64,000 nt of DNA from Raillietiella orientalis (taxonomy: Eukaryota), in contig JAYWIR010000005.1 of NCBI GenBank assembly GCA_036172245.1, positions 4,340,001 to 4,404,000 of the forward strand, given 5' to 3'. A program made the position numbers and the translations under genes. The notes beneath the pieces are model-generated. The model was given only the letters and a program-made list of their open reading frames with translations, had not been told where the DNA came from and made no database searches. Shown here piece by piece: positions 4,530 through 62,700 of the stretch; position 1 is the first letter of the stretch; each line of letters starts with the position of its first letter.

Positions 4530-5595
4530 CACGATCGTTAGGCGGGAGGACCCGGGCATGCCTTAGATGTTGGGCAGCAATGCCATCTTGCTGAGTTCTG
4601 GAATCCCCGGCTCTTGCGAAACGCTGTCATTCTTGGATCCCCATGATACCAGCGGCGTTTGTCCCTCAATCCTCTTGCCGCACCGCTGCCCTCCCTAAGC
4701 GAGGCGAGCAGCAGCAGCCAACTGACGAGGTGAGAAGTTTCCTGCTAGATTGCAGGCAGAAAGAAGGAAATGAGTGGTTGGACCATGTCGCAGCTGACCA
4801 ACGCTGAGATCCCGAGTGGCCTTCCACGTCGACTTGTCCGCTGGAGCGAGGTACTCTGTATTCTTTTTCGAAGAGCTGAAGTGATCCCCAATGCTCGCAG
4901 ACAACAGCACCCTCCCCAGGAAGTAGAGTCGGCACTTCTGCTGCCACACTGGGGTCTTCTCTGAAACGTCCGCCGACACCACTGGACACTGGGAGCGGCT
5001 GAGCGGATGCGGGGAACGGGAAACCCTCCCGCACCTGCTTGAGGGATTATGTTACCCTCCGACCCCTATGACAACGTTTTAGTACGACCTTACATATCCC
5101 GGTTGGCAACCCCAAAGGCGTTTTTAAATTCCTCGTCATGCGTAAGGCCCTGCCGCAGCCGCAGCCTTAGCAGCACTTCGCTGTATCTGCGGCATTGTGG
5201 CGGTCCTGGAGAGACATTGAAGGAGGACCGAAAAAAAAGGAACGCCATCGAGGTATAGCAGACATTCTGCGTATAGCAGACAGGTGGTCCCACCTGGGTG
5301 CTGTCCAGGCGGACCTCACCGGCATTCTGGAAAGGATACAGAGGACTCCCTCCTCCAGAGGACATTGATCTCTTTCCGGCCCTCCATAGTGCCTCTATTT
5401 TTATTTATTTTTTCATTTTATTTTACTTTTTGTTTTCTTCCCTCCCCACCGTTGCCGGGGCGAACCTCGCTGGTCTGCGCACTGGCAACCGGGCAGGTCC
5501 TTAGTTAAGTGGAGCTGGTGGGATCACGCGTGTCCTACCACAACCGTTGCGAGTTTCTTGCGAATTTCAATAAATGCCCCGGCGCGACCGGGGGG
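4530..5595 (+). mobile_element. L1-clade LINE 3' fragment, family A (ORF2 C-terminus plus 3' UTR)
   Basis: Similar to 9410-10302 and 50340-51277 (RLVRWSEVL vs RLCWGELL vs LALWGELL; WSHLGAVQADLTGILERIQRTPSS). Followed by a T-rich tract, the three family-A hairpins and AATAAA at 5569-5574. Confidence 0.8.
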
Positions 5596-9409: not shown

Positions 9410-10302
9410 GAAGCGTGCAGCAGCAGGATGGCGGGACACTTGGCGGAGTCCGTCCGTCCCGAGAAAATGCCAAAGAACTTCCAGCTTACGGATTCTGAGA
9501 TCCCAAGTGCCCCACCGAAAGGACGACTGTGCTGGGGTGAGCTGCTGGGAGTCCCGCAGGGCTCGAGTGGCTCCCAGCGCTAGAGAACAACTGGGTCTTC
9601 CCCTGAAGTGACAGGAGTCGGCACTTCTGCTGTTGCACTGGGGTCTTCCGTGCAACCTCCGCCGGTCTCACTGGACCCGGGGGGGGGGGAAGGCGGTGGA
9701 CCCAAACTGCTGCAGGTACGAGGAACGGGAATCCCAGTTTCCGCATCTGTTGGTAAAGTGTGTTACCCTCCGGACTTTGTGATTGCGCTACGCCACGGCC
9801 CTTGGTGCATCGACGGAAAATCGCCGGGACGTGATGAAGCGCCTCTTCGTGCGCGACGCTCTTTCGCCTGCCGCATCCCTGACAGCTCTTTGCTGCTGCC
9901 TTCGAGGGATTGCGGCAGCCCGAAGCTACGGGAGGGGAGAACGGCGCGATAGGGACGCCATCTGCTTTGCCCTACGCTTCCTGCGGACGGCAGCAATATG
10001 GCCCTACCTGAGGCACACTCAGATGGAACTTGCCGACATCCTGGAAAGGATGCAGAGGACGCCTTCCAGCGGACAGTGACCCCTATCCGTGCCCACAGAA
10101 TTTTTTTTACTATTTATTTTTTATTTATTTTTATTTTTGTTTGCCCCTTCCCCTCCGCTGCCGAGGTGAACCTCGACAGTCTGCGTGACGGTTACCGGTC
10201 AACAGGTTCCGAACGCTTTCGGACGATGTAGAACAGATAGCTCTACACATGTATGTTTATTATTTTTATAAGTAACGCCCTGGTGCTACCAAGTGTTAAA
10301 CC
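9410..10302 (+). mobile_element. L1-clade LINE 3' fragment, family A
   Basis: Encodes SEIPSAPPKGRLCWGELLGVP (cf. SATPSAPPKGLALWGELL in the RT-bearing copy) and RLFVRDALSP...ILERMQRTPSSGQ*. A T-tract and the conserved 3'-UTR hairpins follow (10155-10295). Confidence 0.85.
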
Positions 10303-12380: not shown

Positions 12381-12485
12381 CCCTACGCTTCCTGCGGACT
12401 GCAGCAATATGGCCTTACCTGAGGCACACTCGGATGGAACTTGCCAACATCCTGGAAAGGATGCAGAGGACGCCCTTCAGCGGAC
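12381..12485 (+). repeat. 105-bp internal copy of family-A LINE sequence (matches 9970-10074)
   Basis: About 6 differences from 9970-10074. Flanked by the near-identical 14-mers GGACCCTCCCGGAC (12368-12381) and GGACCTTCCCGGAC (12482-12495). Confidence 0.9.
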
Positions 12486-15400
12486 CTTCCCGGACGACTA
12501 CCCTTCCCCCCAGCGCGGGGGTCCTCCTACGCACTAGCTCTCCCCCCCCCGAAGTGAGGATGGGAGCTCCCCCGCGGGAGAGGGGTGGCCGTTCCCTCTC
12601 CGCCACCTGCCCGGGAGGTGGCGCTGGAGGGAGGCTTGCGGGAAATCCACCGGCTGCGCGCCCCGGGGCGACCGCGGAATCCCGCGGAGGAAATCCGGCC
12701 GCGCCTGAACCGGGAAGGGGCCGGACCCCCAGGACGCGAGCCTCCGCCGACCTGAAGAAGGGGCCGGACCTTCGCGCTGCGTGGAGGGAATTTTGGTTTC
12801 TCTGCCTGCTCCTCCTTCTCCCACCCACCCCCAGCACCCCTCCTACGTCCCTCCTGAACCGTTTCCCTCGGCATCCGGTTCAGGGTATGCAGGGTCAGGG
12901 AGTAATGGCTCTCTAGGCAGACTTCGGAAATGCATCCATCCCTCGGCCTTTCGAGAGCACCCTTCTTCGGAGGCCATTGCCTGGGGGTGCGTTTGGCATC
13001 GGCCCCTTCCGGAGAGCCTCCTGCGGCGTCCTACCTCTAGACGGTCTGCGACCTCGTCTTTCGGGCACATCCTCGAGAGAAAAAAAGCCTCCTCGGTCTC
13101 CTGGTCCCTGTGGGGCGCCCCCGCACCCACCAAGGAATGGGGGGGGAGGAAGGGGTTAGGAATGCACGTCCTGCACGCGACCTGCACACCGCCCCCAGAG
13201 ATCCCGGTGGAACGAACCTGTAGTCGTCAGCTCGCTTCCTGTCGCTTCGCGCAGCATCCATCCACGTGCTTCGGCCTCCGGATGTACACAGTGTACCATC
13301 AGGTGCGTACCGTGGCCGTTCGCGCGAGGCTCGGAATGACCTCGCCAGCCTCACGCGCGCACACTCTGATGCCCTAAACGACCTTCGGAAAGCCTGAGCG
13401 CTCCGGCTCTCTGAGCAGGTGCGTGTGACCACCTCCTCTTGGAACACGGCGCCTCACCGCGCACCTGCTCTTTCCGTTCCCTGCGCTTCTCCTCCCCCCT
13501 CCCCATCCTTCTCAGGAGAGCTCGCGTCCGGGAACTCGCCGGACCGGGATGCCGCCCGTCTTCCGCAGGTGACTGCTCCATCCAGCATGAGATGCAGAGG
13601 CGCCGTTCACTCCGAATGCGCTATTCGTTTCAATTTGGTTCCAACATGACGATCGGACCACGAGAGTCATCCGTTTCTCTCCGGGGGACTCAGGATCGAC
13701 CGAACCACGCCCAAAGGCTGTCGGCATGGAACGGTCCTTCGAAACAAGCCTTCGGGATCCCACTGAAGTGTTTGCTGCCACGAAGACCGAGACCGACGGC
13801 AGCAGTTCCAGGAGAGCCTCCCCTAAACCCTTCCGCTCTCCAAACCGGATCGGCCTGCCTTTCCCCTCCGACGAACGTCAGAAGGCAGGAACGGTTCTGC
13901 CCCGACGGCTGGGCGTCGATTTGACGCTTGGGCGCCATCCATTTCCGGGGCTGGTTGCTTCGGTGGGTTGTCACCGCCCACTCCTCAGTGGACTTCGACT
14001 TCCAGGGCTGCCACCGTCTTGCTTACCATAGCAACCAACACCTCCCATGGGAAATGGCGAACGCGGCGACCCAAGCGTGGTTTCGTTCCGGCTCTGCTTG
14101 CAAGAGTCGGCTGGCCGGGCGCTACGAGGGCTGCAAGATTTCCAAGGCCAGCAAACACTTGGACATGTTATTGTTACATTCCACTCTTGAGCATCATCTG
14201 GAGACTCAGGGAGCCATCACCCTTGTTCTGAATCGAAAAAGAAAAGAAGTAGGAGGATGCAATTCGAGGAGTTGGGACGTACGCACTTCCTGAGACACGA
14301 GGCACCCCAAAGACCCCCTGTGAGGATCATCGCAGAACCTGGATGCTCTTCGATGCGTGCGACCACGAAACCACCGAGCCGGAGGTGGTGGAAGAGTCCT
14401 GCTGCGTTCCACAACGGACGTCAGTTGCGATTCGTTCCGTTTTGAGGCGGCTGTGTAGCTTTCGGCCATCCCCTCCTCATCCTCAAACAGCCGGCGAGTA
14501 CGCGCGCCCGCGGAAGGCAAAAGAGGAGCTCCTGGCTGGTCGGCAAAGTCCCCGCTGCCTCTGGAGCATGGCGCGCAACGTCGGAGAGGTGCGACCGGAA
14601 CGTCCGTCCTTTCAGAGACTTCCGAACTGAATGCCGAGGCCAAACCAAGAAGAACCGTTGGACGGGTCAAGGCGGCGTGCGAGCGGAATCCTCTCTCCCG
14701 CACAGGCATCTTCCGAGAGGATCATGCAAAATGGAGTTCTGCATTGATTGGAACGAACTTCCCGGTGGCAAGCTGCATGACGGGGCTAATCTCCGGGACG
14801 CCTCTGAGCTGGCGGCAGTCACTCCCTGCTGACAAAAGGGGACGCGAAGTGGCAAACGAGGGAGCAAGAAAACACGGGAGTCCCTCTCCGTCCACAGAAT
14901 CGGAAACTGGGTGAATGCAGATGAAGCTTTGCTAACGCTTTCCTGGAGGAAAGATGAAAGCGTCCGTTTCAAAAGTGGAGAACTCTTTTATTTTCAGTCT
15001 TATCGCTAGAACGGATGTAAAGGGAGGAGGAAGGAGTGACCGCTATTCACAGTTTGCACCATCTTCTTATCCTGGAGAAGGCTCGCTGGCAGCTGTTCAT
15101 CTTGACCGGAGACCAAGGGTGCACCCAGCAAATGCCTTCCGGCTGCACTCAGTGTTGACCTGCACCATTCCCAGCTTCTCTTTCTGCTTGTCTGAATCTG
15201 GGAAGATCTCGAGGTCTCTGGATGCCGCTCATTCTTGATCCAGAACTCCCAGGGATCCTGCCATCAGGGCTCTTATCTAAACCGGTGCTCTTCCGGAAGT
15301 CGGAGAACAAAAGAGATCGCTTTCTGTCTTCAGTCCTCTTTCTTTGTCGAGCTTCTTCCAGAGATGTCCACGTGGGCAGGTGACATCATTTCCTCCTGGA

Positions 15401-36050: not shown

Positions 36051-37999
36051 CAGCATTAACGAGAGGCACTGCGTTGAGCCGTGCTGTTTGAACATGGCAA
36101 CAGCGAACCCGTGACCTGCCATCTCGATGCCCTCGAGCTGGACTGTTACCTACCGTGTCCATCCCGCAAGCTTCATCTTTCTTTGCCAATGGGAACCGCT
36201 GCAAACACCTGGATCGAGATGCATAGGAGTTCTCCTGGAACTGCTGCTCTTTGACGCTTTCATTCTCTGCCGCATGAACTCCTCGATGCTTCCGTGCGAG
36301 GATTGCTCTGGGGAGATGCTCCAACGTTGCTGTTCCCTCCCCCTTGCTGCATCCTCTGAGTCTGTGTTTTGAGAGTACAGCAGCCGTTTTCGGATCACTT
36401 CTTCCTCCTCCCACCTTGGCAAGACCCGTTTTCAACGGCTCGAGTTTTTGTTTGGCGCCGAAACGCGAATTTGTTTTCCCTCTTCCCGTTGAAGGCAGGA
36501 CGAAGGGAAGAGGGGATCGACTTTTCGAATGAGCGGCGAAGGGTCGATGAACGTGGGTGCGCCCGACCGCCACGCCACCCCGTTCCGCAAAGCATCGAGG
36601 AAACTTCGTGAAGCTGGCAGCAACGAACGGAACGGAAATCTTCATCGATTTTCTCTGGTCCGTTCCTTCGGTTTTCGTTTTTTGTCTTTCCATGTGCTCA
36701 TCCCGGATCTGGAATGTCTGGAAGCCCCGAGACGCCGGTCAGGGAATTGAGAGTTCGGTGCAATCCGTCTGAGCAGACGCTTAGTGATATCCTTCTGGTG
36801 AGGCTGCATGAGCCCCTGGCGGCAGCAATAGGAATAGCGGAACATCCCCTCCACAAGGAATGCTCCCGTTGCTTCTCACGAAAAGGCTGCACCCCACAGT
36901 CTCTCCCAGCTTCCCTCCCGGACTTGATTTACCTCCGGATGCCTTGAGCCGCTTGGAGAGGAGGAGAGGGGGAAGGGAGGACCTCCTTCGATCGGAGATC
37001 GCAGTCTCCACTCGTTCCGGCTGCGACATCCGAGATCGGCGTACCAGACGATATGTCCTTCAGCACGACTGGATGTCTAGGAGGCACGAAGGGAATCCTG
37101 CGAGCGACTTCGGAAGAGAGAGAGGATGGGCAGGAAGCACCGTGCGGGGGCTTGTCTCTAAGTTCTTCAAGGCCGCATGGAGGGTGAAGCAGAAGCTGAC
37201 GGAGGAGGAACGGCACTGAGGGAAACCGCAAGCGGTTCGGCGCACACGAATGAGGAGATGAGTGCTGCAGGGCGCTGTGGTGTTTCCATTCTCTTGGATG
37301 CGCCGATACGGCTCATGCCTGCATTGCAAGGACCTCAATGGCACGCGGTCATCCTGCCTGCTGCTCGCGCAAGGAGAATCCTCCTCTCGGTTTCCTTCCT
37401 GCCTGGATACCCTTCCTGCAGGAACCACTTGAGGTCCTAAGAGAAGCATGAGCCAAGAAGAAGAAGGAAGGGAAGCGGAAATCTACCCTCCGCGTTCCTC
37501 AGAGGGGGCGAGCAAATCCTCCGAGTGCCAGTTTTAGGCGGTCCTCCTCCTGAAGCAGACAGAAGATGTGGGAAGATGGCCGTCGAACAAAGGTTCACGA
37601 GACGCGGGTTCATTTCAAGGCGGAGACTCCCCTTTCCGTGGGCAGCCTCCATCCAGCCGGCGAACCTGCGGTCGCGGCTTCGGACGGACCACCAGAGGAT
37701 AATGGATGGCGAAATTAGGGAAAACCCCGGAAAGTGTGTCTCCCGAAGGAGGAAGGGAGGTTGTGTTCGTGATCAGCTGCTGGCAGAAATAGCAACGGCA
37801 GTGACGGCCGTACGGCTGGTGATGCAGCTGCTTTGGTTCCCGAATCCGAAGAACCGAGACGCTTTCAAAGCAAGGAGGAAGACGTGGATAAGCGGCGGCG
37901 GCATCCCCAGCACCAGCCTCACGGACTCCATCGCCACCTCCATTCTTGAGCCTTCGCATTTGCTGAAAAAAAGAGGTTGACAAAGTGTTTTCTCGATAG

Positions 38000-38592
38000 A
38001 TTGTGGCCCGCGTGGCCCGGTCTCCGTGTGTGGCACCGAGCGTTGCTAGTTCGAATCCCCAAGTGATGCCGAGGATGTGGGGTACGTCGTGCGTTTTGAA
38101 TTCCCACCCCCATCCTCAAGATAACGCTGGCTGGGGGACGATAGGCTTCGGGTGCGGCTACTGGTGGAATTCGGAAACCGGATGCGCCCCTGTTGACTCA
38201 CCGGGACTGCTCCGGGGTTCTTCCAGGAATCGAGGAGTTCGGTTCTCTTCGGGCTTCCTCTCGGGCTGGGAAAATGGACCCTCCATCACGTACCGTGGAT
38301 CTGGCTGGTATCCCCACTCGGAGGGGAGGTCACCTCTCCAGAGCGTAAGAAGGCAGCGTCCTGCAGAGAAATTGGGAAATGTCCATTCGGGGTTCTTTTC
38401 AGAGAAGAAAACAAGGAGCAGATGCTTTCCGGAGAATAAATCGTGAGTGACTCAGTCCTGGGAGTCCCTCCGGAGACAACCAGGGTAAAGGGTCCCCTTG
38501 AAGAGTGAGAGAGGAACGAACTCTTTCCTCCGGAGCCCTTCCTGGATTCACAGGGTGGTCTCTCCGGGGTTACCCCCCAACTTGAAGAGTCT
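38000..38592 (+). mobile_element. tRNA-headed SINE-like element, copy 1
   Basis: A-box-like TGGCCCGCGTGG (38004-38015) and B box GTTCGAATCC (38049-38058). The body is homologous to 46157-46660 and 61435-62161 (for example TTCCAGGAATC(G/A)AGGAG), and all copies share the 3' end TTGAAGA. Confidence 0.8.
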
Positions 38593-40699
38593 CCACCTCC
38601 ATCCTTGAACCTTTTCGTTCCCTGAAAAAGGTGCCTGACAAAGTGTCTTCTCAATAGGTCATGGCTGTGTCAAGAATCCTCATCGTTGCCGAGCAGGCGC
38701 GGTTGCCTTACAGGAGGTCCGTCGTTACCAGGAGAACCCTGAGCTGCTGCTCCTCGCGTTGGGTCGCCTCCCCAACGCCGAGTGCGCGAAGCAGCTCAAG
38801 ATTGGGAAACGGATTTGCGTTTCCGGAGCCTGGTAGTGCCGTCCCTGAAAGAAGCTGGTAGTGTTCACTCTGTCGGACCTCTTTGAGGACGCGAACCCGC
38901 GCGCTATCCGTTCCAAACGCTTGACCATCGTGTCGAAAGATGCTCGGCTGGCTGGTCGCATCCGCGGCGAGCGTGCTCACGATGGAACAGAAGCAAACGC
39001 CAACAGGAAAAACAGAGCCTCCACGCATCCCCTTCATCTTCGACACGGGTTACCCCTGCGACGTGGTCGCCGATGTCATCGTCGACCAGCAACATCATTG
39101 CTGCCGGCGTTCTCACCGTCACTGCTTCCTGGAAGGTGGATAGAACAGCAGCAGCAGCATAGACGCACTCCGTCCACTGGTGGCTCCTCACTTTAGGGAC
39201 GTCCACAAAAAAGCACACGCAAAATGCATTTCTCCTCGGAGGATTGGAGAGACTCTCTTCCTCTCCCTACGGAGAAATGGGCACCGATGGCACAATCAAT
39301 GAGCGTGATGACTTCGAAGAAGTACAGACCGTGCTTGCACGTACGCGCGTTTTTTTCGACAGTAGTAGTGGGGAGAAGGGGTGGGCAGGAGGAGCATCGG
39401 ATGGAATCGTTCGGACCCCCTTCCGAGAGAAAAGGGGTTCAGACAATCAGGACCTGCGGCGCTGCAGGTGAGCACTGAAGAGGTGATGCTTCTTGCCTTC
39501 CCACTTTGTTTATGAGTTTTCCGATAGAGGATGCATCATCAGATGCCTCGAGCGCGGAGGTTTGGGACGCATTTGTCATTCGGGAAGCGCAAGGGGCGAG
39601 GCGCCGTTCATTGAAAGCGAAACGGAGCGACCCCAACTTTTAATCAAATCGCCTGGGCACCCTCGCAGGCTGATGTCCCGCCGTTTATATCGATGGGGCC
39701 TTTAACTTCTCGCCCGGTGCGTAAGCCGTGGGTTGCCGAGGTAACTGCTCTGGGGGGAGATTGCGCATCGCTTAATGTACTTCTCTGTGGAAATTGTCTT
39801 CCTGGGAATTCGGGTCTGGGGCGAAGGATTTTGTACTCCCCGGATCTCGAGACTTCCAGCGACTTCTGCGTCCCAGACCGAAAGTGCTCGGGTAAGGGGG
39901 AGAGGGGGGAGGCAAGCAACTGCCTCTTCGGTGATCTCACTGGCGGCGGGAGATGCACCCGGAATCGAACTCCCGCGTTTTGCTCGGAGGCGCTTGCAAG
40001 GCGTGGCCCCCACCGTCCATCGCAGCACCTCTCTCTTCGGCTCCCCCCGAGACATCCACAGCTGGGGATGCTGTGCCGAGCGCCAGCGACACTCCGCGAC
40101 TTTATCGATCCGACGTTTTCTCTCCTCTTCGTTGCCTTCTGCATCGGGAGCGTGCTTCAGAAGGAAGGTAGGAAGAATCGTGGAAGGATGGATAGGCCGG
40201 AAGCGGGTCCTGCCGTCGCTGCTGCCCTCTGGATCGTGAGACCAATGCCTCGTTCGAAGGGACCCATTCATGGACTCTAGTTTTCTGGAGCTCCAGAGCT
40301 TCCGAGCAGTTTTTCGGTTTTCATCCCGGAAGCAGCAGCTCTGATCGGGGCGCGGTCTTCGACCAGCTCTTCCCCGGTGTTGAGAGCGGAGGAATAAGAG
40401 AGACAGATAAGGGGCAGAGGAGGAAATCTTGGCCATCGACTGCTTCCGCCTACTGCTCAGGGACCTTTTCCAGAAAGCGGCAAACCTTTCCGGGAAAGGT
40501 CCCTGAGCAGACGATGGAAGTCCCGAACTCGCTTTCCTCGGATGGGCGAACGGCGAGGATCAAAAGGGACTCTCGGCAAAGGGAAGAGGTCCAATTCTGA
40601 AGAGGCCGAATTCCACCCTTTCTGCTGGGAGCGGTAGGATGCACACTGGAATATCCGTCTCTATAGAACAGCGCATGAGCACGAGCTCAAGATTCCCGA

Positions 40700-41950
40700 A
40701 GGAGAAGAGGGGCGGTGCTTTCAGCGTGGTGTGGCCGTGCCGCGGGCAGAGAGGCGTGGAAACAAAACAGTGTGTTTAATGTTTAAAAAGAGCCACGTGC
40801 GCCGCGAGGCACGCGACCGGCTCTTGAGGTTACTTAGCGAAACAAAAAGAAGAAAACTCTTAAAAAAAAAAAAAAAAAAAGCTGAAAGAAAAAAGAAGAA
40901 CCCAAGGATTTCCATCGTCCTAGGCCAATAGTAACGATCTCCTCGCTACTGGCCTTTAAAAAAAAGGAGAGGGGAGGGAGAGAGAGGTGACAAGGGGAGC
41001 TAGCGAAAGGTAGGGAGTGAGCGCTACCGGAAGGAAGCAGCGACTTTATGGTGCGAAGGAGGCAGCGATGGGTAGGGAAGCTCACCTGGGAAGGGGCAGC
41101 CAAGCAGGGCGAATTTCGGAGACTCTGGCAGTCTCGACCGCCTCTCCCCGCGCCACCGGTGGGGGACCTTCCGAAAGAGATGAGAGTGGGAACAACTCCT
41201 GGCTCCCGGAAGAGTATTCGGCCTCCGAGGAAGGACGTCGGAGAGCGCGAGTCCCCCTTCAAGAGGGGAGGAAGAGAATCCTGATGGGTACAAAGGCGGC
41301 CATTTTGAGGCGGACCAATTCCGGAAAAAATGAGGGGTATATTTCAAGGGATAACTTGGATGGAACGCAGCTGTCCTAACATTTCGGACCGTTGCATGCA
41401 GGCTGCTCAACTCCGAACCAAGGAGCACGGTGGCCCCCATCGAGTGGGCCGCGCGCAGACGATGGAATGCCCTGGCCTGCGGGGAGTCGTCGCTACACCC
41501 TGACGCACGCCCAGGGAAAAGAAATGAATATCTGCGTCGGCACACTCGAAGCTCGCCTGAAACCACACAGGCAGCGTTCCAGTGGGCGTCCGGCAGAGAG
41601 GACGGGGAGTCACGCGCTGGCCCTTCCACTTCCAGGCACCCGAGAGTCCGTCCGCGCAACCGTCGCAAAGTCATTGGGACCCTGGAAAAAAAACTAGCTA
41701 AAATGGAGTTTATCCGCAAGGTTATTTGAGAGTGCCTAGACCGTAAGCGAACCAGGTCAGCGAGCCTGTGTCTATTGTCCACCATGTAAAGCAGCCGGGG
41801 CATCCACATCTGACTCGCCAGGAACATGTGACTTCTGCCTGATGGCACGACCCTCTCCACAGAATGTGCAGCTCTATCTGGGAGCAGCTGCAGTCCGGCG
41901 GGGCCGTCCTTTGCACCGGCGCCCACGAGGTCCCGGAAGCAGGGCGCCAC
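40700..41950 (-). mobile_element. L1-clade LINE fragment, family B (post-RT region plus 3' UTR)
   Basis: The minus ORF has SGRSHMFLASQMWMPRLLY...INSILASFF, resembling the L1 thumb region. It ends GACGATGGAAATCCTTGGG, then a T-tract, then a hairpin (40788-40825) almost identical to 62197-62234. Confidence 0.65.
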
Positions 41951-43779
41951 GGCAACGGCACCTCACGCAACGGCTTCCACCAGCATGGCGACCCACCGAG
42001 CTCGAACTCCCGTCTCGGGACAGAGGGGGAAGCGGAACTCCCGCCTCCCATCAGGCACACGTCGTCGGTGGCAGTCGCGCGAAGCGGCGACGGACTCCGT
42101 GCGCCCGAGGGCGGAGCCGACCCGCGGATCTGCAGCTCCTCTCGCGGAGCCGTCGAAGGCTCTCTCGTCTTGCGTTTCTCGCGCCCTGGCCTCCTGGCTC
42201 TGCGGGAACGGGCGACCTCGGCCTGGAGGCACGGAGTGGGCGGCACCCGGATCGCCCGCATCTCCCCTCGAGCGCCCCTTCGCCTCTGCCCCCTCCTCTC
42301 CTGCTGAGCATTCCTGGCGGCGTTGGGCCTCTCGGACGACGGCGCCGTCGTGCCGGGGATGCGAGCGCTGCCCGCTCCAGCTCACAGCGGCAGCGCGAGC
42401 GCGGGAGGGGAAAGCGAGAAGAAGTGGCGACCACGTGCTGCTGACCTCCTCCACCGAGGAGCAGCAGTCCGCGTGCGCTTCCGCGCGGTCGCCGTCGACG
42501 AGTCGTCGGGATGCTCGCCGCGCCCGCAGCAGCGGCGGATCCCGGCCGGCCGCTCCTCTCGACTCTTCACCCGTTCCCGGTCCGCCAGACTTCCCTGGCG
42601 TGACCCGCCCGCTTCCAGGAAACCGAAGGTGCCCTCGACGCTTCATCCCAAGGCTCCAGGGATGCTTTCGCAAGCGCTGCCCTTGACAAGCGCTGTGTCA
42701 AGGACAGCGGACTCTCGGTGTTCGAGGCGGAGAGAGACAATCCTCAGGGCGTAGGTGGTCCCCCACCCACCGCAGCCGGCGCACCCGCCGGCCGGGACGT
42801 CCTGCTGGTGGGAGGGCATTCCAGCCGGCAGAGTCGCCGCCAGCCAGTGACGTCTCGCCTACCGGCGGCCCCGCGAGCCCCGCACCGCGCCGGCGGTCAA
42901 GCGAGTGGGGGCAAAGTGGCTCCCTCTCGACCAGGGACCGGCCCCGGACCCGCGCTCTCGAGAACCCGCGGCGGGCAAACCCTCCGCCAGCGGAGACGAC
43001 GAAGGGACGAAAGCTGCCGAGAAAAAAGGAATCCTCCCGATTCTTTCGCTGGCCGGGGACACTTCGGTAAGCGGAGGACCGCAAGTGCCGGGCTGACGGA
43101 GGGAAGAGGAGGGGCTCTTGCGCGCCAGCTCAGCAGTCCTGAAAGCTGGGCAGCGAGAAGAAGGATGCCCGGTGCCCCCCTCTTTCCCGAGCGAGGGTGC
43201 TGTCTTCACCCCGCAGAGAGCGCGCGTCCTGGTGCGCGCGCGCGAGGGCAGTGCATCCGCGGGTCGCCTCTCCTCAACGCGCGCGCGCTGCTACCGCGGA
43301 AGGTCACGTGGCCGCGAGGTCCAGCTCGCTCCTCTGCGTCCTCATCGCCATCATTCGTCGCGAACGTGTGAGATGTCGCAGTGACTCTTGGTGTGCTCGG
43401 GGGGGGGGGGGGCACTCGTCCATTCGTTTCTGACAAGTTCCCGGAGTCCCAATAGGCTGCCCCTCCCTTGCGAAACGGGACTGGGGAGAAAGGGTCCGTC
43501 CCTCTGTTCATTAGGCATTCTCTTTTTTTATGTTGCCAGTCGCACGTCGGGGAGACGTAATTTTTCCTCTTCGTCTCTCCGAAGGCTGGTCTTTTCCTCC
43601 AGGAAAATCATTTCCCTCCCCCTCCCCCCTCTTCCCGGGGACGTCAAGATCCCTTCCATCTTCCGCGAAAATGTTCCTGTTTGCTTCCACGAACGCACGC
43701 CCACCGACCGCTCGTAGCTCCCTCCCAATGCAAACACTTCCACCCGTTTCTATGACGACACCCTTACTTCCGGAGCGGC

Positions 43780-45900: not shown

Positions 45901-46156
45901 TTTCCCATCGCGAAACAAGAAGCTGGGAGTCCTGATCCCACTAAGGCTGACCCCCCGCATCACCAGGCCAGCTACCGCGAGCTCCGGCCCCTCTCCGTCT
46001 CTTTTTCGTTTGTCCTGTCTTCATAGGCCACTTCATTGACCGCAATCTTCGGGGCTCGTCAGAATCCTGCTGCCCTATCAAGGAGCGGTGGGATTGGATG
46101 CTGACGTGCAATGTCCACGGGACGGAGACACGAAGCGCGGCGATGGCATGAGGAAG

Positions 46157-46660
46157 TCCCTACCCCCTTCTCTGAGGGTGACGCTAGTTGGTGGCGGATA
46201 GGCCTCGAGTGCGGCCACTGGTGGAATCCGGAAACCCGATGCCCCCGGAACTGCTCCGGGGTTCTTCCAGGAATCAAGGAGCCAGTTCCTTTCGGAGTTC
46301 CCCTACGTCTGTGAAAATGGGCCCTTCATCGCGCGTACCGTGGTGCTGCTTGATACCCCCTCCGGAGGGGTGGGAGGGACCTCCAGAGTGTAAGAAGCAG
46401 AGCCCTGAAGAGAAATTGGGAAGCGTCTCTTCGAGGTTCTCTTCAGAGGAGGAGGAAACAGGGAGCGGTTCTCTTGCGGGTTCCCTCCGTGAAAGAAACT
46501 CAGGAGCTCGTTCTTTCCGGGTTCCCTTTGGAAACAACCAGGGTGAGAGTTTCCCCCCATGTTATCCTCTCAAGAGTGAGAGGAACGAAATCCTTTTTCC
46601 GGAACCTTCCTGTATTCATAGGTTGGCTTCCTCCTAGGTACCCCCTAACTTGAAGAGTTA
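46157..46660 (+). mobile_element. SINE-like element, copy 2 (5'-truncated, no tRNA head seen)
   Basis: Aligns with about 38100-38590 (CTGGTGGAAT(C/T)CGGAAACC, CTGCTCCGGGGTTCTTCCAGGAATC). Ends AACTTGAAGAGT like copy 1. No B box is seen upstream. Confidence 0.8.
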
Positions 46661-46662
46661 AA

Positions 46663-46856
46663 ATGCACCCTCTGGTGGCGTGGACGATGTCAAAGAGCTT
46701 CGTGAGTGCCTCTAAGGAGGCAAACGGTTCTTCAGTACTTTGCTACCTCCCTCCCCCTCCCCCGCTTCCCCAAAAGAAAATCCGAAAAAGAGGAAAAGTT
46801 GGAAGAAAAGCAACGAAAACAGAAGAACCCAAAAGGATTTGCATCATCTCGGAGTG
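46663..46856 (-). mobile_element. Family-B LINE 3' end (about 190 bp)
   Basis: The minus strand reads GATGATGCAAATCCTTTTGGG, a T-tract, a hairpin and CCACGCCACC...AGAGGGTGC, in the same order as 62162-62340. Confidence 0.7.
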
Positions 46857-46859
46857 AAC

Positions 46860-47550
46860 TTGCTGGTGGTGCATGGGAAGAATTTCGTGCAGAGAGCGCT
46901 TTCACCACTGGACACGGGGGGGGGGAGTGTGGGCGCTGAGTGTGACAGGTGCGGGAAGAAGGAGATACTCACTCACCTGCTGTTGGACTGTGGTGGCGTG
47001 ATGATCCCTTTGGGATCGCCTCGCGGCGACCCTAGGTATCTCGGTCCAGGCGTCCCCCCCCTGGACATTTTCAGACGCCTCTTCGTGCGTGATGCTGCAC
47101 TGCCGCCAGTCGCGTCCCTCGCCGTCCTCTGCTGTCTTCGTGGGATCACGACGGCCTGGAACGCCAGAAGAAGAGGCCGAGACGGCGGGGACTCAATCCA
47201 CTGAGCGCGGATCTTCCCGAAGAACCCCTCGAGATTGCCCGACCAGGGCGATATACGAACGGGACTTGCCAGTATCCAGAACAGGATGCAGAGGACGCCT
47301 GGCGGAGTACTGTGATCCCTTCCTCGGTTTCCTTCTTTCCTCCCCGTGTACAATTTCCCCTCCCCTGTTCCGGTGTGTTTTGTTATTTTTTGTTTTTGTT
47401 TCCCCTTCCCCCACGCTGACGAAGCGGACCTCGCCGGTCTGCGAACCGGCCCTCGGCGGGTTCATTGCGATTGGTAGAACCAATGGTTCTACCACTCCAA
47501 TGTATTGTTATCACCTTACATAATCAGTGCCCGGCATAACCGGGTGAAAA
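46860..47550 (+). mobile_element. L1-clade LINE 3' fragment, family A, with intact zinc knuckle
   Basis: CDRCGKKEILTHLLLDC (zf-RVT-type CCHC) and RLFVRDAAL...LCCLRGI. All 3'-UTR hairpins are present (47433-47450, 47472-47494, 47528-47546), followed by AAAA. Confidence 0.9.
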
Positions 47551-47840
47551 TCATCTCGAAATGCAGCCGCTTCAGTGTGGTGGGAGAGGAATAGCTGCTT
47601 CTTCGGCCAGTGGACGTCGTGAAGTTCTTCGCTCGGCACGATGAAGCTCCGGTCCTGCTACCAAGAAGATGGACTCTGAGAGGATTGCAGCAAGGCGGAA
47701 ACCAAGCTGCACCTCTTTGCCTGTCCAGCACCGGACAGGGATGGAGACTTCTTAAGGCACACGACAGGCGTCTCGGGTGAGACGACGGACGGAAACCCGA
47801 GAGGACTGCGCGAAGTAGGGGCTGGCGCCGCTGCAAAGTA

Positions 47841-49139: not shown

Positions 49140-51277
49140 AAACAGGATAATGGACCACGTCTTCAGCGATCAACCAGCATCTTGCACCATCATGCATGGG
49201 ATTCCCGACTGTGTTCCTGGCCTATCTGAGCTCCAGCTGGCGCTATGCACTAATCAGAGTTCTTTTCAGCTGCCGGCACGTGTACGGCGTACCGGTTCGC
49301 CGCGGCATAAGGCAGGGTGACAGCCTCAGCCTCCTACTCTTCAGCATCTACTTCGAGTTGGTGCTGAGAGCACACCGGGACCTGGCAACCCTGCCGAGCT
49401 CATGTCCGGGCACGCCTGCCGTACGCGGACGATCTGCTGCTGCTGCTCCCCATTTCCATCCCGGCTCCTGCACTCGAGGGCTTCTTCGAGCTGCTCAGGC
49501 GAACTTGGGACTGGACTTGAGGTGATCTGGGCGAAGTCGTCCATAGTGCCGGTCAGTGCGACGTGGGCCGCACGGCCAGACTAGATCCGTTTGGGGATCC
49601 CCACGGGAGGGTACTCCAAGTACCTTGGCGTTCCGTTGGGGGACTTCTGCCTAGCAGAAGTCTGATCCGGCCGTCTTCAAAGAGTGGAGATGGCACCCGA
49701 CCCGTTCCAGAACGGCAAGGTCTACTTGCAGGAACGGGCCGCAATGTGGGATGAGTTCGCGGCTCCCCTCCTCCGCTCCCAGCTCTTTGTTTGCCCTGTC
49801 CCACCCAATATCAGGAAACGAACCGAGGACCTCCTGAGGAAAGCCTTGTGGAGCATAGGGAGGTCCCGAGTTCGCTTGAAAGACCTGTGTGCTCCTCGTA
49901 AGGATGGCAGACTGGACCTCCTTGCTCTAAAGCGGATGGAGCGACAGCTCCAATTCAGAAGACTCGCACTTGCAGCGAAGTTTTGGAAAACGCCCTAGTG
50001 CGCACCGCATGCTCCTCACCAGAAGAGCCATCAGCTACGAAGGATTGACCTTGATCCTCGTGGCCAACGGCATCAGCATGAGGCAATGTGACCATCAGCT
50101 GTACCTTGGTGCAGAACAACACTTGGATCTCCTGCCTCCTCGCGAACTGCACTTCCTGGCTCCAGGAGTCATTTTCAGCATGGGGAAAGATCCACGTCTC
50201 GAGCGAGGGCGGAGTATGCCTGCCTCCGGAAAGGGAGGTACACTCGACAGCCCCTGCGGGAGTCGTATGCAACCCACGCAAACTGCTGTGGACCTCGTTA
50301 ACTCCCCTTTCCCCAGTGCTGCCTTCCCTGGAAAACGCAAGGGACAGCAATGAACCGGCAAGATGGGAGGTGTCCTGCTGCATCAAAAGCAGGAAAAAAC
50401 TTTTAAGCGCGTGGACAACTCGGCAGCTAGAGGACTCTGCTACCCCGAGTGCCCCGCCGAAAGGACTTGCACTCTGGGGCGAGCTGCTCACGATACCTCC
50501 AGAGGAGTTGAAGTGACCCCCAGCGTGTTGGAACAGAGGCAACCTCCCCCTCAAGTGGCAAGAGATGGCGTTGCAGCTGCTGCATTGGAGAATCCCATGC
50601 AGAGCACGCCTCTCTCATTGGACACGGGAGAGCGTCGATGCCCATTGTACAAAGTGAGGCGAGAAAGAAACCTTTCCGCGCTCCTTGGTAGACTGTTCTG
50701 CCCTTCGACCCCTTTGAAATCGTCTCTTGACGACCCTAGAAAAACCGGAGGGAGAACCAAGAGACATTTTCCCACTCCTCTTCCGGCGTACCTATCTGCC
50801 ACCAGCCGCATCCTTAGGTTCCTAAGGATGCCTGCAACCCTGCTGCTGTGTCCGTGGAAAATCGCGGCATGCTGGAACGCGACAAGGAGAGGGCAAAATG
50901 GCAGGGAAGCCATCCACTGGACGACCATCTTCTTGAGGAACGAGTCGAGATGGCTCCATCTGGGCAATGCCAAAACTCCTGAACTGGGCAATCCTGAACA
51001 GGATGCAGAGGGCGTCTCCAAGAGAACTGTGATCCCTTCCCTCGTCCCTCCTCCCTAAAAAACTCACTCCCCCCCTCTTTTTTTCTTTTTTTGTTTGTTT
51101 GTTTTTGTGGTTTTCCCTCCCCCTTCACCGATGGAGAGGTCCTCACCGGTCTGAGTACCGGTTTTTTGGCAAGGGATTCGCTCATGGTAGAACCAAATGT
51201 TCTACCAAGAATCTGTAAAATCGACGACTTTATTATAATTTCTTATAATGAATGCCCCGGCAAATCCAGGTGAAAAA
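49140..51277 (+). mobile_element. L1-clade LINE, family A: degenerate reverse transcriptase through 3' UTR
   Basis: Ordered motifs: MGFP; RRGIRQGDSLSLLLF (QGD 49313-49321); LPYADDLLL (YADD 49422-49433); TGLEVIWAKS; KYLGVPL (KYLG 49618-49629); LCAPRKDGRLDL. The family-A C-terminus and hairpins follow. Multiple frameshifts and stops. Confidence 0.95.
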
Positions 51278-54649: not shown

Positions 54650-55380
54650 CAGGCGGATGCCGTGCACTTCTTCCGGGACGGAAAACTTCTGGATGGCTGC
54701 AAGACGAGCTGAGTTGGACAACGCTTCCACTCCTCGTTTCCGGCAAAAGGGACTCCTTCGGTGGAGTGACCTGCTTGGTGCACCCCCCGAAAAACTCGTG
54801 GTCCCTTCCCTTTGCATGGACACCTCCGTGCTCCCGCTACGCTGGAAACAGGATGCTCTGCTATTTCTGCACTGGAGATTCCAGTGCAGTCAGAGCAGAC
54901 CCCTGGTTTCCGGGAGAGTTGCCACCCCGAACTGCTCCAGGTGGACTGCGGTGCCCTCGAGGACACGTGGCGGAGACTGCTTCGGCGCTCCGTCGACCTC
55001 AGGACACTGCTTTGGACTTGCTGCGACGCTTCTTCTCAGGAGACGTACTGAAGAAATGCGCTGTCTCATCGCAATGATCTGTTGCATCCGCGCCTTGGTG
55101 ACAGTCCTCTATGTGTTAGAAGCAAGTTTGAGGCGAAGAGAGACCGCCATCATGGCAGCAGCTCTCATGGCTCGGCAGCAAGGTGGCCTCGTCTGCCAGA
55201 AGACGCCGCCAGGGAGATCGCCACCATCTACAGCCGCTTCTAGAAATTAAGGAACGTGCCATACCAAAGACCCTCCCCACCCCCTTCCTATCTTTTTCAT
55301 TTATTGTTCCCTCCCTCCGTTCCCTAGCTTTTGGAAGCCGACCCGCGTGCCGGTGGCTGTCCCGGATGAACTTGTTTTTG
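54650..55380 (+). mobile_element. L1-clade LINE 3' fragment, distant relative of family A
   Basis: KGLLRWSDLLGAPPEKL...LPLRWKQDALLFLHW aligns with KGLALWGELLTIPPEEL...PLKWQE. MICCIRAL parallels LCCLRGI. A pyrimidine tract follows. Confidence 0.65.
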
Positions 55381-58300
55381 GAGGGGAGGAGTTTTTCTTG
55401 TTTTTTTTGAGGGGATACTTTTCCCCTCTATCTTGTAGTTTATTTTTTCCCGGAGTAACCGGGTTCCAACCTCCGGGACGGATAATTCTGGCGGGGTGCA
55501 GTCCCGACGATCTTTGCAGAAACCCTCTGTTCCCTCTGATCGTTATTCCCCGAGCGGGAGGGTCTGCCAGCAGGTTTCCTCGCCCCTTCCCTCGTCCCCG
55601 CTCGAGCACGCGTCCTCTCCCTGTCTCCTGCCATCGGACCACGAAGTTGGGGCCGCCTGATCTCCTTCTCAAGAAGTGGTTCGTTCCACGTGGACAGTCT
55701 TCCTCGGACGAGGGGGAGGGGTCGGAAGGAAGGAAGGTTCGCTGGAAACGAAATCCTGGACTATTGCCACTGCAACTTCTGCTCTTCGGTTTGGGCAGGC
55801 AGGACCTTTTTTCGGGACCACCGGGGTGCATCGCCCTTGCACGTATTCTGGAAGAGCTGCGCAGAGGCGTTCTGCTTCTGTCCCTCCCTCAAGTCGTTCG
55901 AATTTCCGGAACTGCGGAAGAACATCCCTGTGTTTCAGCTCCGGAAACCAGCGTGGAGGTTCCTCTTCCCTCCTTTTCCTGCTGCTTCCTTTTATCGGAA
56001 GGAGGAACCGCTTCTTGAAGTTCTTCAAGAAGGAAGGGACTCAGAGTTCAGCTGGTTCCTCTTCAGAGTCAGTCGGAGGTTCCTCCCACAAAACACAGCA
56101 GGCCAGACCAATGAGCAGGTCAAAAAATCTCCGAAGATGGTCTTTTCTGCAGAATTGCCCTGATGTCTCAGCGTTTCCCTAGAAACCAATGATTCCTCAC
56201 CGAGGATCCCTTTCTCCAACGAGCAGGAGGGACTGCATTCAGAATGAATCTCCGCGCTCGGCACTGAACCGTCCCTTCTCCCTCATTGCCAGGCAACGCT
56301 GACGAGATCCCTGGGCGGAATCTTTGCTACCCACGGGTTGTTTTGAAGTGCTGGAAATCATCGCGCTAGAAAGGCGGAATGGCTGTACGGGGTCTTGGAG
56401 AGGAGGAGTGGAGAAACGTCGCCGGACTTGCCGGAAAGACTTTCTGAGCGCCGGCACGCTCGAGACGAGCCGCATCTCCTGAGAAACGCCGCCCAAACGC
56501 TTCATCCCCTCCCCCTTCTTTGGCGCGGAGTGCGCCGCCCCCGCGTTTGCATTCCTCTTTCGCGAGATCCTTCTGATCCAAGAAGCAATTCGAAATCCGT
56601 GGCTCAGGGGTTCCAGGAGCAACCTTCTCTCCGGGCGCTCCGGGGCCCGTTTTCGCACGCTTCCTTGTGCCTCTCCCCTTTCCTGCCTCTTCCCCCGTTC
56701 TCAGAGCCAAGTGCCTGCAGCGAGCGCTCTCGTGCAGACAATGAGGAACGCCGACGCTCCTTGGCATGCTGAGGAGCCCGTGCGAGATCGCAGCGCGCGA
56801 GAGAGGGGGAGGGGCGGATGGGGGATTGCTTTCGGGAGCATCTGCGCTTGATTTTAATTAAAATGAACTAGGATGTCCTCTTATTCCGGCTTATTCATTG
56901 CCGTGCTGCTGCGGATCTTCGATCGGCTGCATGTAAATCTTTCGTTTCCAGCTGAGGCGGACCTCTGCCTTCCTCGGATGGAGATGCGGGATACTGGAAC
57001 AGGAGTTAACGATGCTTTTTGATCCGGACCTAGAGACAATCGGAGTAAAGGACGATGGGTACTTGGGACGGAAACGCACAGGGAAAGAGGAGTAGGAAGA
57101 GGAAGGTCCAAAAATGAGACACCCTCGAGGTGAACGACACTTGTAACATGGACAACAACATGCACATTATAATAAGTGTGCTTGCTCCTCAAAAGATGAC
57201 TGCTGTTTGGATAATGCGGCGAATGTTTTTTGTTTTGTTTTTTCCAAGGAAGGTTGACGCAGCAACTGTGAGGAGACGAAATTCCTGCGGTTCTTCACGA
57301 TTTCTTCTCTCACACTGCTCATTTGATTTGCAGATGAATTTCTCAAGTCAGGACGTACTCGAAGACAGCATATTGGTGGCTGCACAGGCGTCTTCGAGCA
57401 CAAGAATGATGACATCAGGGTTTCACACAAATGTTCTCCACGTCCTTATTTGAGATCTTCATGAGGGAGGCTGGGAATACGGGAAACTCTCCGTGCAAGC
57501 CGGAAGGAGGTCCCAAGTATGAGTGGAAATGCTCTGGTAAGAAATGCTCTGGTATGCTCACAGCTGCCACCAAGGAAGCGCAGATGCTTCCGTCGAAACT
57601 CCTGCCTCGAAAATGCAACTCTCTTCCAGTTTACGGAAATGGAACTCGGGAAAGGGCATTGGATTCCAGGAATTCAGTATTCCTCAGGTTTCAGGACTGG
57701 TAATTCATTGTCCAGTTTCGGCTTAGATTACATCGGCCAATGGGCAAAAAACCTTCATCCTCTTCTTCTGACTGATAATTTAATGGGAAAAGATATCACT
57801 CCCTGATCCACGGAAGCATCAGCAGAGGCATTTAACAAAGCGAACTGGAAGAACGTGCTGAAGATCCTCCCAGAAGAGGGAAGAGAAGCAAATGGTGAGA
57901 TCACCGATCAGTGACGGACCACGAAACAACGAGACTACTCATCCATTGGGTCGCAGCTAAAGAAGATGAGGTTTTCCGAGATGAAAAATCCAAGTCTTCG
58001 CGTTTGTGCGGCAACAGATCCAGTTTTCCAGTCTCTGGAAAACTGGATCGATTGCATGACAAGAGAAAACGTGCACGCAATCGTGGGATTACTGTACCAC
58101 AGTTTGTGCTCGAATCACGTCCACAAAAAATGTCCCTTGTAGGAATTTCCGATGCCCTCTGATTACTGGACCTAGTGACCTGGCGCAGTGGGTTCTGGTT
58201 AACCAGCGTTCCCATTGCTTTAAACTTTAAACTTGGACAGCATCTCAATGGCCGTCATCGTCGAAACATCCGGGAGGATTCTATGTCTTTTGAGTGGCAA

Positions 58301-61434: not shown

Positions 61435-62161
61435 GCGCTGTCGGCCGTGTGACTAAGGTTTCCGCTCGTGGCACCAAGCGTTGCGGGTTCGAGTCCCTCT
61501 AGGGGAAGGATCGACGCCGAGAAATAGGTGCGTCGCGGTTTTCGAGTCTCCCCCGCAGGATGACGTTGGTTGGCCTACATTCAGGCGTGGCACTGATGGA
61601 AGCCGGAAACCTCCGCTGAGTGATCGGGATTGGAAGTCGACCATCCGGGTCCTTCCAGGAATCAAGGAGCCCTTCAGGATTCCCCTCCGGTCGTGAAAAT
61701 GGAGCCACCCTCCTATCGGAGTGACCTTCCATCGTTTACAATGGAGCTGACTGATGACCCTCCCTCAGGGGCTTGCCTCTTCAGAGTGTCATAAGCGTGT
61801 TGCTCCCTTCGGGGCTCTCTTCAGAGGAGGAAACAGGGAACGGTGCCCTCCGAAGAAATTTCAGGAGTGGATCCTTTCCAGGGGTTCCCACCGGAGACCA
61901 AATTCCTACTAGCGGATCCTTTCTGGGTTCCCTTCGGAGAAGATGAAATGGAGAGGACCCCCCCTCCCTAGGGGTGTCCCTCCGGAGAGAATGAGGAAGG
62001 AGGTTCCCTTCTGGGTTCCCCTTCGGAACAACCAGGGTGGGAGGTGCGATCCCCCCGTCCGGGGGGATCCCTCCCCAAGCGTGAGAGGAACGGACTTCGA
62101 GCCTTTCCTGGATTCATAGGGTGGACTCCCACTTCCGGGGTGCCCCTATTTTGAAGAATTA
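61435..62161 (+). mobile_element. tRNA-headed SINE-like element, copy 3 (longest)
   Basis: tRNA-like head, body homologous to copies 1 and 2, expanded internal GGGTTCCCTTCGGA-type modules, and 3' end ATTTTGAAGAATT. Confidence 0.8.
61442..61499 (+). promoter_or_regulatory. Pol III type-2 internal promoter-like tRNA head (A and B boxes)
   Basis: CGGCCGTGTGACTAAGG (D-arm/A-box-like) and GCGGGTTCGAGTCCC (T-arm/B box) lie at tRNA spacing. The acceptor and anticodon stems do not pair, so this is not a functional tRNA. Confidence 0.7.
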
Positions 62162-62700
62162 CACGCACCCTCTGCGGGTGGCGTGGAGCAGTGTTGAAGA
62201 GTCACGTGCGCCGCGAGGCACGCGACCGGCTCTTGAGGTACTCGGCGAACCAAAAAAAAGAAAATCCGAAAAAAAGCTGGGAGGAAAAAACAGCGAAGAT
62301 AGAAGAAAGAAAAACCCAAAGGATTTCCATCATCACCGGAAAGAGTAAGAAAGAGGTTTCCTTCAGGGTTCCCTCTCAATTGCAGGAGGAACAAACTCCT
62401 TCCTCCGAAGTCCTTCCTGAATTCACAGGGTAATCTCAACGGCATTGCCCCAACTTGGCTTTCCAGCTGTAACAGGATCTCAAACATCTTTCTGTCCATT
62501 CTGTGGACATGCTCACTGACCAATGCCTTTTCTTGTTCCCAGATTGCCACTCCTCTAGGCAGTGGGTGCTGAACTCCTCCGGGGGGTGGGGCTGAACCCT
62601 TGTCTTTCTTGACAGCAAGGCCGTTTTCGATTTTTCCGACCAAGTGCTTTGGGACACAAAGGAGAAGCAGCTGCGACGACCAAAGTTTTCTTGCTTGCAT
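62162..62700 (-). mobile_element. Family-B LINE 3' fragment
   Basis: Open minus frame ...VAIWEQEKALVS...LPCEFRKDFGGRSLFL...GDDGNPLGF, then a T-tract, a hairpin (62197-62234) and the terminal hairpin CACCC-GCAGA-GGGTG. Confidence 0.75.

Follow-up and report, generated by a model that had tools for sequence, protein, structure and literature searches.

At two loci of the window (the whole stretch of 64,000 nucleotides from Raillietiella orientalis that was analyzed), a SINE-like repeat is followed by a 6-7 nt A/T filler, by a second repeat termed unit B and by a 5′-truncated retroelement, with the SINE-like repeat and the third part both on the + strand. The ends of B are fixed in this three-part arrangement and the third part varies, being the 3′ part of a LINE (LINE-A) in pair 1 and the 3′ part of the SINE-like repeat in pair 2. 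The SINE–B junction is recurrent and non-random and results neither from chance nor from segmental duplication. The SINE–B–retroelement units are best explained by a known kind of event, namely as chimeric or composite retrocopies. The reading favored here, held tentatively and at somewhat less than even probability, is that both pairs are chimeric retrocopies, in which template switching of a LINE RT joined a SINE–B RNA to a truncated LINE or SINE copy. The original prediction had described the junction as a tail-to-tail contact between a SINE and the 3′ end of a reverse-oriented LINE; the data do not support such a contact, and no targeting mechanism is needed to account for the junction.

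Analyzed Sequence and Comparison Data

The window is GC-rich, with 46-64% GC in 2-kb steps, and most of the sequence is non-coding eukaryotic DNA. A Pfam scan of the 69 ORFs of at least 150 aa in the window revealed no credible domain, with weak unrelated matches below the cut-offs, and the 150 ORFs of 70-149 aa scanned between 40.7 and 61.7 kb likewise gave only weak, unrelated matches below the cut-offs. By self-BLAST of the window, 10 HSP pairs were obtained in total. For comparison, contigs of the run X1 were used, which derives from the same organism and has a low coverage and a word share of 0.06. Three of 80 X1 contigs were placed on the window with at least 99% identity; 52 of the 80 are less than 90% identical and were therefore taken as paralogues. 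Searches with the exact 27-nt hairpin of B and with an exact 23-nt core of the SINE-like repeat found 0 loci in viral, metagenome and prokaryote-genome contigs. For a dinoflagellate spliced-leader motif, 0 matches were obtained.

Three further features of the window were recorded. A near-perfect palindrome of 61 nt (40451-40512), one arm of which contains TCCCTGAG, matches the Rfam family mir-8186 (RF04252) with 45 bits on both strands (E 2.5e-08, gathering score 80); the family name was not found in the searchable literature. An isolated 203-nt fragment of a eukaryotic LSU rRNA is located at 13876-14078 on the minus strand in non-ribosomal surroundings (model 1172-1379, 56.7 bits, above gathering). 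An inverted repeat of 479 bp with 94.6% identity (2054-2532 and 36044-35566) has arms 33 kb apart and is much younger than the SINE and LINE copies.

The coordinates of the repeat units, the fillers and the third parts are given in Table 1.

Table 1. Features of the two three-part units, the solo copies and the reference LINE in the window.
Feature	Position	Strand	Evidence
TSD of solo SINE-like copy, 77 bp	left 37931..38007, right 38590-38665	.	local alignment
Solo SINE-like copy	38008..38590	+	nhmmer match 38003-38592, E 6e-180; defines both unit ends
b40, long form of B	40738..40957	.	nhmmer match 40733-40924, E 1.5e-41; short-form equivalent end 40919
Pair-1 SINE-like repeat	46097..46657	+	nhmmer match 46097-46661, model 24-613, E 1.5e-175
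Pair-1 filler TTAAAAT, 7 nt	46658..46664	.	outside both units, as bounded by the solo SINE and by b40 and its paralogue
b46, B of pair 1	46665..46848	.	nhmmer match 46661-46853, E 7e-43
A46, 3′ part of LINE-A, 5′-truncated	46851..47551	+	alignment to A50 (50570-51277)
A50, longer LINE-A remnant, reference for A46	49151..51277	+	RT motifs, CCHC motif, 3′ UTR
Pair-2 SINE-like repeat	61436..62158	+	nhmmer match 61440-62162, model 1-613, E 5.8e-157
Pair-2 filler TTACAC, 6 nt	62159..62164	.	between SINE end and B start
b62, B of pair 2	62165..62334	.	nhmmer match 62161-62339, E 2.5e-49
frag62, 3′ part of SINE-like repeat, 5′-truncated	62335..62457	+	nhmmer match 62351-62457, profile 496-604, E 5e-15

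The SINE-Like Repeat

The SINE-like repeat has a length of ~580 nt and is present in the window in three near-full copies and one 3′ fragment; the nhmmer profile gave no further match below E 0.2 in the window, and many paralogues are found in X1. The pair-1 copy is 70.9% identical to the solo copy over 530 nt by BLAST; its first ~55 nt are weakly aligned, the BLAST similarity beginning at 46153. The pair-2 copy is of full length and contains internal insertions.

The repeat has the general properties of a SINE, as it is short, non-coding and dispersed, has a fixed 3′ end, occurs in one 5′-truncated copy and, as the solo copy, is bracketed by a TSD. ARAGORN predicted 0 tRNA genes in the window and Rfam gave no tRNA match at E up to 1 for two copies; a B-box-like motif, GTTCGAATCC or GTTCGAGTCC, could be read by eye, with GTTCGAATCC in the solo copy. 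Since a tRNA-related head was not found, "SINE-like" is the safer name.

The 77-bp direct repeat around the solo copy scored 62, compared to a mean of 15 and a maximum of 24 in 200 shuffles. It is diverged, with an identity of ~80%, and it is much longer than the TSDs of LINE-mediated insertions, which usually comprise 10-20 bp. As the solo copy is bracketed by this repeat, the 3′ end of the SINE is fixed independently of the pairs. The X1 consensus of four SINE tails (loose end at 38560) terminates in AAAAAA, and the filler at the junctions may therefore be a remnant of an A-rich tail.

By eye, the 3′ end of the SINE-like repeat (38560-38590), a short GGGG..CCCC hairpin followed by TGAAGAG, resembles that of LINE-A (47520-47551), a CCCGG..CCGGG hairpin followed by TGAAAA. 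This likeness would fit a mobilization of the SINE by LINE-A-type elements.

Unit B

Unit B is ~180 nt long and occurs in exactly three copies, with nothing else below E 0.6 for its nhmmer profile in the window. The copy b46 is the most diverged and carries a C-rich insertion. Between b62 and b40, the BLAST identity is 81% and the hairpins are identical. No match to the SINE, to LINE UTRs or to LINE peptides was found alongside b40 by profile searches and tblastn.

Both ends of B could be defined. The X1 record 1 is ~98% identical to b40 over 40738-40957 (four substitutions) and both of its ends are unlike the window; because the match begins only at 40738, the start of B is fixed independently of the pairs. 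In the pairs, the equivalent position is occupied by the G of GCACCC. The far end of B (…GGATTTSCATCATC) is the same base in b46 and b62. The motif AAGGATTTSCATCRTC, expected 0.01 times, occurs exactly three times in the window, in each case at the far end of a B copy (40904-40919 in b40, 46833-46848 in b46 and 62319-62334 in b62), and beyond it all three loci differ. The form of B shared by b40 and its X1 paralogue is 38 nt longer than the paired B and has a common end, the homology between the two terminating in TTT on the + strand at 40957.

On inspection by eye, the 23 nt at the start of b40 (40738-40760) resemble, as an inverted complement, the interior of the hairpin in b62 and b46 (62165-62187), which could reflect a small inversion of the hairpin between B subtypes.

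The + strand may be the sense strand of B. This is favored above all by the neighbors of B, and also by the TTT at the end of the long form. Runs of at least four T are absent from the + strand of all three copies, compared to 5-7 per copy on the other strand, and a Pol III transcript begun in the SINE could therefore read through B. The minus strand contains a T-rich tract followed by hairpins, an arrangement similar, by eye, to that of the 3′ UTRs of the local LINEs, and the X1 depth over B is 11.7-17.6 in the left part and 4-5.5 in the right part. Such a left-heavy depth is the expectation for a minus-strand 3′ end, and a poor alignment of the A-rich half could explain it equally well.

Rfam gave nothing credible for B at E up to 1, U6 included. 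The two copies b40 and its X1 paralogue are ~98% alike, compared to 62-85% among the transposon copies of the genome. It is conceivable, if quite doubtful, that the long form of B (40738-40957) represents an undescribed family of small ncRNA genes, the transcript of which, alone or as read-through from the SINE, is the preferred acceptor for template switching by the LINE RT of this organism.

The SINE–B Junctions

The joint reads TTGAAGAG|TTAAAAT|GCACCCTCTG in pair 1 (46650-46674) and TTGAAGAA|TTACAC|GCACCCTCTG in pair 2 (62151-62174), and thus the same base of the SINE 3′ end and the same base of B recur at both loci, as had been predicted; both of the strings quoted in the prediction are present, slightly left of the rounded positions given there. 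B begins 6-7 nt past a SINE end in two of its three copies and follows two of the four SINE 3′ ends. The 24-nt junction pattern yielded 0 matches in 100 shuffles, which places the junction beyond chance within the window. With up to three mismatches the pattern recovers the pair-2 site only, since the filler of pair 1 has one extra base.

The strong divergence noted between the two pairs could be verified (62% identity for the SINEs, 64% for b46 and b62). Self-BLAST of the window and alignment revealed no similarity between the outer flanks of the two pairs, so that they are not one old segmental duplication. It also holds that each unit occurs alone, the SINE at 38008-38590 and B at 40738-40957. 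The prediction had assigned 40700-41950 to the latter element as a "family-B" copy, of which only 40738-40957 is repeated.

Among the X1 matches listed (8 of 91 pieces and 6 of 112 loose ends), record 4 covers the pair-1 joint with 20 mismatches (46566-46685), and another contig links the SINE at 38555 to B at 40745. Both contigs reach only 25 and 21 nt into B, which is below the 31-nt bridging rule, and they give a hint of one or two more copies of the SINE–B junction.

The Third Part and LINE-A

In both pairs, the far end of B is directly adjoined (0-3 nt) by a 5′-truncated retroelement on the + strand. A SINE on the left and a truncated element on the right are found together at both short B copies and not at the single long one.

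In pair 1, A46 starts at most 3 nt from the far end of B, contains a C..C…H….C motif in a + frame, matches the UTR profile with E 7.6e-66 and reaches the 3′ terminal hairpin of its family. In pair 2, frag62 comprises the last ~120 nt of the SINE-like repeat, up to and including its 3′ end. With the tail of the solo copy it shares 84% identity, whereas its match to the pair-2 SINE is confined to the first 49 nt. Since it is closer to the solo tail than to its neighbor, it was classified as a separate 5′-truncated copy and not as a duplicated neighboring tail. As a candidate for a long TSD of the pair-2 SINE tail, frag62 was rejected.

The reference copy A50 contains the RT motifs GIRQGD, YADD (49422) and KYLGV. 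In the PDB, its RT piece had a best E of 0.0046 and all seven matches listed are non-LTR RTs; the match to Pfam RVT_1 was weak (E 0.13, the frameshifted LINE-A pieces being searched singly), and the thumb-region piece had 0 PDB matches. Judged by its sequence, LINE-A is a real non-LTR element that should be able to supply RT. Related C-terminal remnants were detected with the LINE peptides by tblastn at 4662-4988, 9482-9716 and 54711-54887. A LINE piece looked up in the protein atlas matched eukaryotic clusters only.

Decayed copies and fragments of the LINE-A superfamily were observed at 4662-5576, 9482-10300, 6661-6555 (minus strand), 12447-12508 and 54711-55600. The copies at 4662 and 9482 follow the plan of the LINE-A 3′ UTR, in which the blocks GGATRCAGAGG and ACCTCG..GGTCTGCG are separated by a T-rich tract and followed by a CCCGG…CCGGG hairpin at the terminus. 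Only parts of the UTR are present at 6661-6555 and 12447-12508, and for the copy at 54711 the likeness to the plan was judged by eye only. The segment 12381-12485 is a 94% copy of 9970-10074.

Chimeric Retrocopies as the Favored Explanation

Chimeric retrocopies made by template switching of a LINE RT have been characterized by five features: (i) a full-length 5′ part, (ii) a 5′-truncated 3′ part, (iii) variable truncation sites, (iv) a direct joint in the same orientation, and (v) flanking direct repeats (PMC2104539). Regarding (i), the SINE covers the profile positions 1-613 in pair 2 and 24-613 in pair 1, and B starts like b40 and its paralogue. Regarding (ii) and (iii), A46 and frag62 are 5′-truncated at different points and complete to their 3′ ends. 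The joints (iv) are direct, with 0-3 nt at the third part and the 6-7 nt filler between SINE and B; for the orientation of B, the asymmetry of the T runs favors the + strand and the layout and the X1 depth favor the minus strand. Flanking direct repeats (v) could not be detected, the flank alignments of both units being at shuffle level.

In the favored reading, a LINE RT would initiate in the usual way at a nicked target, with the RNA of LINE-A or of the SINE as template, and leave this first template part-way, which would result in the variable 5′ truncation. Synthesis would then resume at the 3′ end of another RNA, one that bears B at this end. This acceptor would be a SINE–B read-through transcript from a master locus, produced by Pol III from the SINE into the adjacent B. 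As the SINE–filler–B joint is common to both pairs, one SINE–B transcript would be likelier than two jumps each time. The + strand for B, the SINE–B RNA and the template switching itself are what we infer from this anatomy. The reading rests on two units, and for the 38 nt by which b40 and its paralogue are longer it has to invoke processing or a variant source.

Flanking Repeats and Relative Ages

It had been proposed to map whether TSDs bracket the pair or each half. None was found for the pairs, neither after the SINE end nor after B nor after the third part, and none for b40. For the complete three-part units, the best scores were 18 and 17, compared to shuffle means of 17.7 and 17.8; in contrast, the 77-bp TSD of the solo SINE is clearly preserved. 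A purine-rich TSD candidate around b40, seen by eye, was rejected with a score below chance level. Short TSDs could have decayed at ~15% divergence per copy; as their lack may reflect decay, the assignment of the units to the chimeras is weakened and still possible.

In the three-taxon comparison of the SINE copies, 51 sites are shared by pair 1 and pair 2 against the solo copy, and the other two patterns comprise 76 and 78 sites. Since the paired SINEs have no excess of shared derived sites, a long-lived SINE–B lineage is not supported. In pair 2, private changes were found at 11 of 159 sites in b62 and at 76 of 501 in the SINE; in pair 1 at 42 of 159 in b46 and at 78 of 501 in the SINE. In 63 comparable tail columns, frag62 has five singletons and the pair-2 SINE six. 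These age comparisons contradict each other, and neither the site patterns from three copies nor the tail singletons are numerous enough to establish which insertion came first.

Alternative Explanations

Three explanations had been offered with the original prediction, of which an old chimera that spreads as a unit is closest to the favored reading. The other two, a LINE-B that targets SINE 3′ ends or SINE 3′ ends that prime reverse transcription on the LINE RNA, would both make B the 3′ end of a minus-strand LINE in a true tail-to-tail arrangement, which we consider quite unlikely. The recurrence of the joint at the same base, the UTR-like succession of T-rich tract and hairpins on the minus strand (by eye), the higher X1 depth at the hairpin end and the existence of SINE copies without B, as expected of an unoccupied target, are in agreement with it. 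However, no B copy is accompanied by a coding body or a repeat: the 69 window ORFs of at least 150 aa and the 150 ORFs of 70-149 aa (40.7-61.7 kb) contain no domain of an RT or endonuclease, tblastn with the peptides of the real LINEs of the window gave nothing at 40.9-42 kb, and the X1 depth is 0 over 41240-43577, compared to 4-14 in the bins of the SINE, B and LINE-A. B is also unlike the 3′ UTRs of real LINEs. A profile built from four of these found other LINE fragments, whereas for B no match was obtained up to E 100 with either strand, local alignments of B with LINE 3′ UTRs were at shuffle level in both orientations, and BLAST of B against LINE-A gave T-rich matches only. Furthermore, variable 5′ truncation is not seen for B: b46 and b62 end at the same base, which is unlike randomly 5′-truncated LINE copies, and the end of b40 is common to its X1 paralogue. 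As targeting and priming both need variable far ends of B, the constant end, which they leave unexplained, counts against them, and they are also silent on the truncated + strand retroelement that adjoins this end in both pairs. That a single SINE–B locus was duplicated or gene-converted at the DNA level is very improbable; such an event would account for the same internal joint at both loci, but not for the lack of flank similarity on either side, the different element right after B at each locus, or the X1 hints at more copies.

Alternatively, SINE–B may be a composite non-autonomous element, i.e., a long SINE subfamily that is mobile as a unit, with the truncated pieces as later insertions drawn to its 3′ end. 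The joint, the similar filler (TTAAAAT and TTACAC) and the far end of B, which are the same in both pairs, would follow from this, as would the unrelated outer flanks, and the + strand of B has no Pol III stop signals. Nevertheless, two independent later insertions exactly at the last base of B, with no tail or flank between, would be required, a TSD after B is lacking and the paired SINEs have no excess of shared derived sites, which makes this origin unlikely. It could also be assumed that an older resident SINE twice received, in its A-rich tail, a two-part chimera made up of B and a truncated LINE or SINE, such tails being hot spots for an A/T-cutting endonuclease. The A/T-rich filler, the AAAAAA at the end of the X1 consensus of four SINE tails and the few private changes of b62 relative to the pair-2 SINE speak for such insertions. 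Yet frag62 is, by its singletons, not younger than the pair-2 SINE, the age contrast is reversed in pair 1, and the fillers are of near-equal length with the same start, which independent hits in a tail need not give; the probability of tail insertion is accordingly rated as low.

Comparison With Known Systems

Target-specific non-LTR elements such as Tx1, the Dictyostelium TRE elements and R1/R2 are autonomous, encode an endonuclease in an ORF and show variable 5′ truncation. As in these systems, the insertion point is constant relative to another repeat; unlike them, B has no coding body and no variable truncation was seen. SVA is an example of a composite or chimeric SINE. As in composite SINEs, which are built by template switching or 3′ read-through, a SINE body passes at a fixed point into an unrelated module, and the whole was copied more than once; the known ones end in their own tail and a TSD, whereas here a different truncated retroelement follows each time. 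In the account of chimeric retrocopies, such SINEs are named "chimeric SINE elements" (PMC2104539).

In MINE and related elements of Magnaporthe grisea, the ncRNA WEIRD is joined to truncated MGL LINEs; in one case its partner is a truncated Mg-SINE, and one tripartite form, WEIRD–MgSINE–MGL, is described (PMC2104539). As in MINE, a non-coding unit is joined directly to a 5′-truncated LINE or SINE, the 5′ unit has a constant end, the truncation is variable and three-part forms occur. The Magnaporthe chimeras have TSDs of 10-20 bp and the order ncRNA–SINE–LINE with a truncated SINE (PMC2104539). Around the present units no TSDs were found, and in each of them B is preceded on the 5′ side by a full SINE. 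In mammals, chimeric pseudogenes of U6 snRNA and L1 are known (PMC4476161) and have been explained by template switching of the RT (PMC2104539). They resemble the present units in the junction of a small RNA with a fixed 3′ end to a 5′-truncated LINE (PMC2104539). They differ in that B is preceded by a SINE and, up to E 1, has no counterpart among the Rfam families, U6 included. Among the literature matches listed, no title or abstract opening indicated a paper on a recurrent SINE–LINE joint.

Implications

Only two units are available, and they consist of old, decayed elements; the present value of the finding is that of a lead for a genome-wide repeat census and not of a new mechanism. It corrects an over-reading, since the data show no homing of a LINE to SINE tails. 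If B is an ncRNA and the preferred acceptor, it would be the counterpart in another lineage of the mammalian U6 and the Magnaporthe WEIRD, and the SINE–B joint would be the mark of a still traceable master locus. If the reading of the units as chimeric retrocopies holds, they would add another lineage in which LINE RTs build multi-part chimeric retrocopies, and they would point to an abundant RNA of ~180-220 nt.
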